Source: Escherichia coli
Lineage (GTDB): Bacteria > Pseudomonadota > Gammaproteobacteria > Enterobacterales > Enterobacteriaceae
Assembly: GCF_003334355.1 (NCBI RefSeq)
Contig: NZ_QOWP01000024.1
Direction: 5' to 3' (one strand)
DNA length: 64,000 bases
Position numbers: made by a program. Positions within the stretch are counted from its first letter, which is position 1. Every line of letters begins with the position of its first letter. Positions 33,401 to 36,400 of the stretch are shown here, one piece after another.

Positions 33401-36400
33401 AAACCTTCGCCGGTCAGATTTTCCAGTGTCAGCACCGGCGTTCCGGCGGCATGTTGTGGGCGGTTACCAGGTAACTCCAGCCATAATTTTTGGCTGGCAG
33501 AGAGCGATTTTTCCCGTACCGCTGGGGTGATGGCCTGAATAATGTCGTCGGTAGACAGTTCGCTGGTTTTGCCGCTTAAGGCGATGGTTCCGTCGCGCAT
33601 CACGCTAATTCGATCGGCAATCTGGCGAATTTCCGGCAGCTTATGCGAGATAAAAACAATACCCACGCCAGTAGCAAGCAGCTCTTGCAAGCGACTAAAC
33701 AAGCGTTCGGTTTCCGCAGGGGTAAGCGAGGCGGTAGGTTCATCGAGGATCAGAATCCGCGAGTCGCGCATCAGCCCGCGGAGGATTTCCACCATTTGGC
33801 GATCGGCGACATCCAGCGATCCTGCCAGACTATGCAGATCAAACTGGCAGCCCAGCGCCGCCAGCAAGTTCTTCATTTTCTGCATGGAGAGCTGTTTTTT
33901 TGCCAGCCCAAACAGGATGTTTTCTTTTATCGACAGGCTTGGGAAAAGCAGCGGTTCCTGGGGAACGAGATAAATACCCAGCTGATGAGCATGAACTGGC
34001 GTTAATCTGACGTAGTTGTTGCCCTCAATCTCCAGCGTACCGCTATCAGCAGGGGTAATACCGGCAATAATCTTCATTAACGTCGATTTACCGGCACCAT
34101 TGCCGCCGAGCAGGGCGTGGACCTCCCCCTGATGCAACGTAAAATCGATGCCTTTCAGGACATTGACCCCTGAATACTGTTTATAAACCGAGCGGGCGCA
34201 AAGTAGCGGTAACGCGCGGGTATCACTCGTTTGCATATTTCCCCCGTTCAGTTTTGCAGGTGAGTTTTGAACAAATGTATTTCTGCTTTTAATTTGTTCA
34301 TAACCTTAGGTGGACATTGCACATATTTCCGACGAATAGATCACAATTTATGCTATTTTGATTTTCACGGTTGCGTTTGTTCATGCTCGTAGAGTCAAAC
34401 TGTGGTTGCCATCACAGATATAAATGAGCAAGAACTGAACAATTGCATTAAAGATTTAAATATGTTCAAAGTGAAGAATGAATTATGACAATCAACGATT
34501 CGGCAATTTCAGAACAGGGAATGTGTGAAGAAGAACAGGTCGCGCGGATCGCGTGGTTTTACTATCACGACGGGCTGACCCAGAGCGAGATCAGCGATCG
34601 TCTCGGCCTGACACGTTTGAAAGTGTCGCGATTGCTGGAGAAAGGGCATCAGTCCGGCATTATTCGCGTACAGATTAATTCTCGCTTTGAAGGCTGTCTG
34701 GAATATGAAACTCAATTACGTCGTCAGTTTTCGCTGCAACATGTCCGGGTGATCCCTGGGCTTGCGGATGCTGATGTCGGTGGGCGACTGGGGATAGGCG
34801 CGGCGCATATGTTGATGAGTTTACTTCAACCACAACAGATGCTGGCGATTGGTTTTGGCGAGGCAACCATGAATACGCTGCAACGCTTAAGTGGTTTTAT
34901 TTCGTCACAGCAAATTCGCCTGGTCACGCTCTCCGGTGGCGTCGGTTCTTATATGACGGGAATCGGGCAGCTTAACGCGGCGTGCAGTGTGAATATTATT
35001 CCGGCTCCGTTGCGGGCATCCTCCGCTGACATTGCCCGTACGCTAAAAAATGAAAATTGCGTCAAAGATGTTCTGTTAGCCGCGCAAGCAGCGGATGTGG
35101 CGATTGTCGGCATTGGTGCTGTGAGTCAACAGGACGATGCGACAATCATTCGCTCCGGTTATATCAGCCAGGGCGAACAGTTAATGATTGGCCGAAAAGG
35201 GGCGGTTGGCGACATTTTAGGCTACTTTTTTGATGCAAAAGGTGACGTTGTCACGAATATCAAAATACATAACGAACTGATTGGCTTACCTTTAAGCGCG
35301 CTGAAGACCATACCCGTCCGGGTTGGCGTGGCAGGGGGAGAAAATAAAGCCGAAGCAATTGCCGCTGCAATGAAAGGCGGTTATATCAACGCACTGGTTA
35401 CCGATCAGGACACAGCAGCGGCGATTTTACGTAGTTAAATTTGCATGACCTTATTACCGGGAATGATGGAGAACGTATAGAGGAACAGACAGAACGCATA
35501 AGCCGAGGATAATCTAATGGCTCGACTCTTTACCCTTTCAGAATCAAAGTACTACCTGATGGCGCTGGATGCAGGCACCGGAAGTATTCGGGCTGTGATA
35601 TTCGACCTGGAAGGCAATCAAATAGCAGTGGGACAGGCGGAGTGGCGGCATCTGGCAGTACCGGACGTTCCTGGTTCTATGGAATTTGATCTCAACAAAA
35701 ACTGGCAACTGGCGTGTGAGTGTATGCGCCAGGCGCTGCACAACGCCGGCATAGCCCCGGAGTATATCGCTGCCGTTTCGGCATGTTCGATGCGTGAAGG
35801 CATTGTTTTATATAATAATGAAGGAGCCCCGATCTGGGCCTGCGCCAATGTGGATGCCAGAGCGGCACGCGAAGTTAGCGAACTTAAAGAACTGCACAAC
35901 AATACCTTTGAAAACGAAGTTTATCGCGCGACCGGACAAACACTGGCTTTAAGTGCCATCCCCAGATTACTTTGGCTGGCGCACCATCGTTCCGATATTT
36001 ACCGTCAGGCATCAACCATCACCATGATCAGCGACTGGCTGGCCTATATGCTCAGCGGCGAACTGGCGGTGGATCCCTCTAACGCTGGCACCACGGGACT
36101 TCTTGATCTAACCACCCGTGACTGGAAACCTGCATTGCTGGATATGGCTGGCCTACGTGCCGATATTCTTTCTCCTGTCAAAGAAACCGGCACATTGCTG
36201 GGCGTGGTAAGTTCACAAGCGGCGGAACTCTGCGGTCTGAAGGCGGGCACTCCGGTGGTCGTTGGAGGAGGCGACGTGCAGCTTGGTTGCCTTGGGTTAG
36301 GCGTTGTGCGTCCGGCACAAACCGCGGTTCTTGGCGGCACATTCTGGCAGCAAGTTGTAAATTTAGCCGCGCCGGTGACAGACCCAGAAATGAACGTGCG

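Follow-up and report, generated by a model that had tools for sequence, protein, structure and literature searches.

A probable lsrR-proximal CRP site in the divergent lsrA-lsrR promoter region of Escherichia coli

The region between lsrA and lsrR in the E. coli strain described here contains, at positions 34401-34416, what is probably a genuine cAMP-CRP site, the lsrR-proximal of two CRP boxes and, judged by its geometry, a class II site for lsrRK. Its score, the conservation of its half-sites and its fixed position make it more than a chance match. All positions are those of the window, the whole 64,000-nucleotide stretch of DNA that was analysed (contig NZ_QOWP01000024.1). That CRP acts on the lsr region, and that this region has two CRP boxes as well as LsrR boxes, is already known (Wang 2005; Xue 2009; Hauk 2016; bioRxiv 10.64898/2026.06.09.730415). 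The only mildly new elements reported below are architectural, namely fixed offsets, predicted -10 hexamers, a distal half-site short of the optimum, operators spaced 166-168 bp apart and an orphan half-site. The modest added value is comparative, in that the position of the lsrR-side CRP box is fixed across many Enterobacterales.

The lsr locus and its regulation by CRP

The intergenic region, which the earlier note had placed at 34237-34484, was confirmed by the ends of the flanking open reading frames, lsrA (32701-34236, minus strand) and lsrR (34485-35438, plus strand), and is 248 bp long. It was also AT-rich, as had been claimed, with a G+C content of 34.3% compared to 46.9% for the whole window; only 3.5% of 248-bp windows were equally AT-rich. 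No RNA family, and hence no sign of a structured RNA element, was detected when 33900-34800 was scanned against Rfam at E≤1.

The claim that the locus (lsrRK plus lsrACDBFG) is intact was borne out by eight full-length open reading frames, each an NCBIfam equivalog match above the curated cut-off over essentially the whole protein. On the plus strand lsrR (317 aa; NF011947, 619 bits) is followed by lsrK (35517-37109, 530 aa; NF008187, 1001 bits), while on the minus strand lsrA (511 aa; NF011967, 958 bits, full length) is followed by lsrC (31679-32707), lsrD (30687-31679), lsrB (29653-30675), lsrF (28751-29626), lsrG (28437-28727) and tam. The lengths of the lsr proteins were those of the RefSeq annotation in a 99.9%-identical E. 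coli strain. The Lsr system for AI-2 uptake and processing is thus represented by complete lsrACDBFG and divergent lsrRK, with two LsrR operators in the spacer, and it is a reasonable inference from the intact locus that the strain imports and processes AI-2. The AI-2 uptake system of this strain is therefore intact and of the standard K-12 type, catabolite-repression input included, which is of value for annotation and is no discovery.

A 448-bp segment around the spacer (34137-34584) was 100% identical to E. coli K-12 MG1655 and to many other strains, so that the K-12 literature is directly applicable. Gel-shift and footprint data on the lsr region were reportedly obtained by Wang in 2005, by Xavier and Bassler in 2005 and by Xue in 2009. 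The same segment was found in 4183 of 5426 complete E. coli genomes (77%); an intact lsr locus is therefore common in E. coli but not universal within the species. Downstream of lsrK, an intact 1806-aa open reading frame (37640-43060) belongs, by the annotation of close relatives, to the ECSE_1600 autotransporter family. The match in the K-12-derived strain HST04 consists of two pieces and an annotated IS2 transposase, so the gene is apparently disrupted there and intact here; hipBA lies just downstream of this open reading frame, at about 43283-44871.

Deletion of crp abolishes Plsr-gfp expression, even in a ΔlsrR strain, and the 217-nt Plsr reporter that requires CRP spans both CRP boxes. 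Sugars repress lsr through CRP, which has been described as a direct activator of lsrACDBFG and lsrR, and binding of CRP to the lsr region in vitro has been stated in papers. Genomic SELEX recovered lsrA as a known CRP target, and lsrACDBFG has been included among the Crp-controlled genes; lsrA and lsrR had no match in two supplementary files of a Crp ChIP-exo paper. The local repressor, LsrR, is a SorC-family tetramer that is released by phospho-AI-2. CRP sites in lsr spacers have been surveyed across about 20,000 genomes (bioRxiv 10.64898/2026.06.09.730415).

Sequence, score and conservation of the lsrR-side site

The sequence TGTGG-TTGCCA-TCACA (TGTGGTTGCCATCACA) was present at 34401-34416 exactly as the earlier note had read it, within a 22-mer (34398-34419) centred at 34408.5. 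It has a 6-bp spacer and differs from TGTGA-N6-TCACA by one mismatch, agreeing at 9 of the 10 core positions. The bare pattern is weak evidence, since the 64-kb window contains six one-mismatch matches compared to 2.0 expected from shuffled sequences. A symmetrised 22-bp CRP matrix was built from 17 classical sites of the Berg-von Hippel and Stormo-Hartzell compilations. With this heuristic matrix, the 22-mer scored 11.9 bits and ranked fifth among 63,979 window positions (top 0.008%), and about 0.02 sites of at least 11.9 bits would be expected in 248 bp.

The same sequence, on the other strand (...TCTGTGATGGCAACCACAGTT...), was the top E. coli lsr match in a FIMO scan of lsr regions with the CollecTF CRP matrix, with a score of 16.1-16.9 and p values of 8.7e-7 to 1.5e-6 (bioRxiv 10.64898/2026.06.09.730415, Table S4). 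The distances given in the table are 178 bp to lsrA and 70 bp to lsrR; those from our centre are 172.5 and 76.5 bp, an offset of 6 bp that arises because the preprint motif has 46 columns with the core off-centre. The verbatim site sequences were not found in the full texts searched.

Four positions in the window outscored the lsr site on the 17-site matrix (17.4 to 14.6 bits), 18771-18792, 52904-52925, 349-370 and 26649-26670. By collinearity with strain AR435, the first lies between yneK and ydeA and the last about 35 bp upstream of yneE. As a check on the matrix, the neighbouring genes were only partly informative; a 9.8-bit match (24901-24922) was located upstream of uxaB, and the remaining top matches were not at obviously known CRP promoters.

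An LsrR alignment yielded 80 loci from one-genome-per-species contigs, 68 of which had lsrA divergently adjacent. Nineteen spacers of 248-251 bp aligned well, from Escherichia, Citrobacter, Izhakiella, Kluyvera, Superficieibacter, Serratia sp., Entomohabitans, Mangrovibacter and an Enterobacteriaceae MAG. The conserved blocks in these spacers were two 33-nt LsrR operators, GATCAC at 34339-34344, TTTGTTCA at 34376-34383 and TGTGG-N6-TCACAG at 34401-34417. In the last of these, the major-allele frequency was 0.96 and 0.99 in the two half-sites (19 spacers, eight genera), compared to 0.45 in the 6-bp spacer between them and 0.44 and 0.65 in the flanks. Conserved half-sites separated by a free 6-bp spacer are the signature of a protein site in which two half-sites are read.

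The position of the site was equally constrained. There were 27 loci with a recognisable lsrR-side operator, a set that adds Pantoea, Hafnia, Rahnella rivi and Affinibrenneria, and in every one the top CRP-like 22-mer in the interval 25-65 bp from that operator was exactly 43.5 bp from the operator centre. The 26 distinct sequences of this box had 20 different spacers, while the promoter-proximal half was TCACA in 25 of them. The distal half was TGTGG in 16 of the 26 and TGTGA in none, which points to a moderate-affinity site or to an extra, unexplained constraint. Class II CRP sites commonly pair a good half-site with a poor one. At the sensitivity used, Yersinia, Photorhabdus and Xenorhabdus had only the second type of CRP site described below, CRPI, and the same apparently holds for Salmonella (table in bioRxiv 10.64898/2026.06.09.730415); on the sequences compared, the lsrR-side CRP box is not universal.

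The abundance of one-mismatch matches, six in 64 kb, leaves some room for the view that the site is a coincidence of sequence with no function, yet this is extremely improbable given the expectation of about 0.02 at this score in 248 bp, and given conserved half-sites, a free spacer and a fixed position in at least eight genera. The description of the spacer as an lsr divergent promoter region with a CRP-type site is thus supported by the matrix score, the FIMO result and the conservation across genera.

CRPI, the LsrR operators and promoter geometry

The proposal of a CRP site at 34401-34416 held, although a second one, closer to lsrA and placed by its geometry to activate lsrACDBFG, had been missed. 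This site, TGTGA-TCTATT-CGTCG (34330-34345, minus strand; 22-mer 34327-34348, centre 34337.5), was weak on the 17-site matrix (3.9 bits), and its FIMO p value was 3.8e-5 (bioRxiv 10.64898/2026.06.09.730415). The GATCAC half was invariant in the 19 spacers, and 43 of 67 loci, those of Yersinia, Rahnella and Photorhabdus among them, had a site of this type at a distance of 53.5-55.5 bp from the lsrA operator. In Hauk 2016, two CRP boxes are drawn in the lsr spacer and the sequence TGTGCAAT is described as "very close to CRPI". That sequence corresponds to 34323-34316 on the minus strand, which identifies CRPI as the site at 34330-34345. The site at 34401-34416 is probably CRPII of Hauk 2016, because no other good CRP-like sequence lies between CRPI and the lsrR box. 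Since two boxes are drawn in that paper, a published CRP site elsewhere in the spacer would not exclude the one at 34401-34416.

The several short repeats that the earlier note had mentioned are real, in the form of a 33-nt direct repeat and further 9-nt repeats, but the note did not recognise the former as two LsrR operators. The copy on the lsrA side (TGAACAAATGT...AATTTGTTCA, 34268-34300), a conserved block with direct and inverted repeats, and the copy on the lsrR side (34436-34468) are 76% identical, and each is an imperfect palindrome, TGAACA...TGTTCA. The lsrR-side operator contains AACAAT and AAGATTTAA, which Hauk 2016 gives as motifs of the p-lsrR-box and attributes to Xue 2009. The same paper locates this box at -237 to -197 from the lsrA ATG, which maps to 34433-34473 here. 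In all 27 loci with two recognisable operators, from many genera, the operators were 166-168 bp apart, centre to centre, or about 16 helical turns. Hauk 2016 also reports that most up-mutations for expression in the lsrA direction fall in or near the distant lsrR-side box; together with the fixed spacing, their positions hint at cooperation between the two LsrR operators.

A further copy of the right arm of the lsrA-side operator, TTTGTTCA, is located between the two CRP sites (34376-34383), where it belongs to a direct and an inverted repeat and lacks a partner arm. Four of its eight columns were invariant and its major-allele frequency was 0.89 in the 19 spacers. This orphan sequence, of which no mention was found in the literature search, could be an auxiliary LsrR half-site. 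The operator arms, TGAACA...TGTTCA, also resemble CRP half-sites. The segment 34452-34473 in the lsrR-side operator scored 6.1 bits on the CRP matrix, and it is the third "CRP site" in Table S4 (FIMO 9.17, p 7.3e-5; bioRxiv 10.64898/2026.06.09.730415). Because the arms mimic CRP half-sites, automated surveys may overstate the number of CRP sites in lsr spacers.

The promoters themselves are not conspicuous. No match to a sigma-70 consensus promoter was found in 34150-34560, a terminator scan of the spacer was also empty, and the spacer is absent from the list of promoters bound by the RpoD holoenzyme alone. The lack of a consensus sigma-70 promoter and the absence from that list fit activator-dependent promoters. 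Literature searches for a mapped lsrR or lsrA transcription start gave nothing usable, and the start sites, the class II assignment and the promoter served by each box are inferred here from predicted -10 hexamers.

In class II promoters such as galP1, CRP is centred at -41.5, and 29.5 bp separate its centre from the beginning of the -10 hexamer. Counted from CRPI, this position holds TAAGGT (34303-34308, minus strand), the predicted lsrA -10, which would set the start near 34296 with CRPI at -41.5. Of 58 distinct lsrA upstream regions of Enterobacterales, 55 had TAnnnT at exactly this distance from CRPI, the inner three bases being free, and the T, A and T were invariant in the 19-spacer alignment. 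On the other side, AACAAT (34438-34443, plus strand) is the predicted lsrR -10, with a start near 34450; relative to this hexamer, the centre of the 34401-34416 site would be at exactly -41.5. AACAAT occupied the class II offset from the lsrR-side CRP box in 26 of 26 distinct sequences, but the hexamer doubles as the left arm of the LsrR operator, and its conservation is therefore not independent evidence for a -10. A second candidate for the lsrR -10, TATAAA (34419-34424), was discarded, since the CRP centre is only 13 bp away and the final base of the hexamer is not conserved as T.

The hexamer TGCAAT within TGTGCAAT falls, under the class II model, in the spacer between the -35 and -10 positions of lsrAp. 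Two up-mutations that Hauk 2016 attributes to a CytR site, TGTGCAAT to TGTACAAT and TGTGCAAT to TGTGTAAT, both bring TGCAAT one step nearer to TATAAT, and a new or improved -10 is a simpler alternative.

A CytR link for the lsr region is suggested in the same paper, and one reading of TGTGG...TCACAG is that a further factor reads it, in place of CRP or alongside it, either in a CytR-CRP repression complex or as another regulator. Added constraint is hinted at by the distal half, which is always non-consensus (TGTGG or TGCCA), and by the G that follows TCACA in most sequences; moreover, GTTGCGTT (34370-34377) resembles the CytR octamer, GTTGCATT. CytR-regulated tandem CRP sites are roughly 53 bp apart, however, while the centres of the lsr boxes are 71 bp apart. 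Neither GTTGCG nor the octamer-like GTTGCGTT was conserved outside Escherichia, and no other octamer-like sequence was present. The motif at 34401-34416 fits CRP well on two independent matrices, and the G-to-A and C-to-T up-mutations behind the CytR idea also improve a -10-like hexamer, from TGCAAT to TACAAT or TGTAAT. Recognition by another factor is thus very unlikely, and co-regulation by CytR and CRP was rejected on the 71-bp spacing and the missing conservation.

The distance between the boxes bears on a different possibility, that 34401-34416 is a real CRP site that mainly boosts lsrACDBFG from about -112.5 in tandem with CRPI, in a class III-like arrangement, and does not drive lsrRK. 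A distance of 69-71 bp was kept in Escherichia, Superficieibacter, Rahnella, Hafnia, Ewingella and Affinibrenneria. Active CRP positions follow a 10-11 bp series, which this spacing fits. The reporter that requires CRP includes both boxes, and the up-mutations in or near the distant p-lsrR box (Hauk 2016) indicate that distal elements affect the lsrA promoter. In contrast, the constant distance to the lsrR operator (27 of 27 loci) and to AACAAT (26 of 26 sequences) is a promoter-proximal geometry, and -112.5 is farther away than the RNA polymerase alpha C-terminal domain usually reaches. As the main role of the site, an upstream boost is unlikely, although it is compatible with activation of lsrRK and the two are not exclusive.

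Proposed control of the lsr promoters and comparison with known systems

In the preferred explanation, in which 34401-34416 is a class II site for lsrRK, cAMP-CRP would bind this site and 34330-34345 when glucose and other preferred sugars are absent, while LsrR bound to 34268-34300 and 34436-34468 would block both promoters until released by phospho-AI-2. Each CRP box would be the class II (-41.5) activator site of the nearer promoter, as its geometry suggests. The site at 34401-34416 would serve lsrRK, from a start near 34450 and with AACAAT, within the LsrR operator, as the -10, and CRPI would serve lsrACDBFG, with TAAGGT as the -10 and a start near 34296. The LsrR operator would overlap the start site on the lsrA side, and both the -10 and the start site on the lsrR side. 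Two CRP dimers 71 bp apart would share much the same helical face, and from -112.5 each might in addition assist the promoter on the far side. If each divergent promoter has a class II site of its own, the CRP input to both the transporter operon and the repressor would be explained at the sequence level.

More tentatively, and with the odds somewhat against it, the control region of lsr may form a conserved nucleoprotein module of rigid architecture. It may comprise two back-to-back class II CRP promoters with boxes 71 bp apart, LsrR operators 166-168 bp apart, an orphan LsrR-like half-site, likewise conserved, in the interval between the CRP boxes and an lsrR -10 embedded in its own operator. 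These architectural details were not found stated in the literature search. If the module exists, the lsrR-side CRP box would be kept sub-optimal, without TGTGA, so that the supply of repressor is tuned to cAMP.

The K-12 lsrA-lsrR region has the same order of elements and is identical over 448 bp, the spacer being without any difference; departures from K-12 are confined to neighbouring DNA, such as the intact ECSE_1600 autotransporter gene downstream of lsrK. The likeness to class II CRP promoters such as galP1 is that, by the predicted -10 hexamers, both boxes would be centred at exactly -41.5, and that there is no recognisable -35. Unlike those promoters, lsr would have two such predicted promoters back to back, with CRP boxes 71 bp apart, and each promoter would be overlapped, at or just downstream of its -10, by the operator of a SorC-family repressor. 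The lac, deo and rbs control regions likewise combine a global need for cAMP-CRP with a local repressor that is freed by a phosphorylated sugar-like inducer, and the resemblance to rbs has been stressed (bioRxiv 10.64898/2026.06.09.730415). In contrast to these systems, the inducer of lsr is phospho-AI-2, and the repressor gene is in the divergent unit, apparently with a CRP box of its own.
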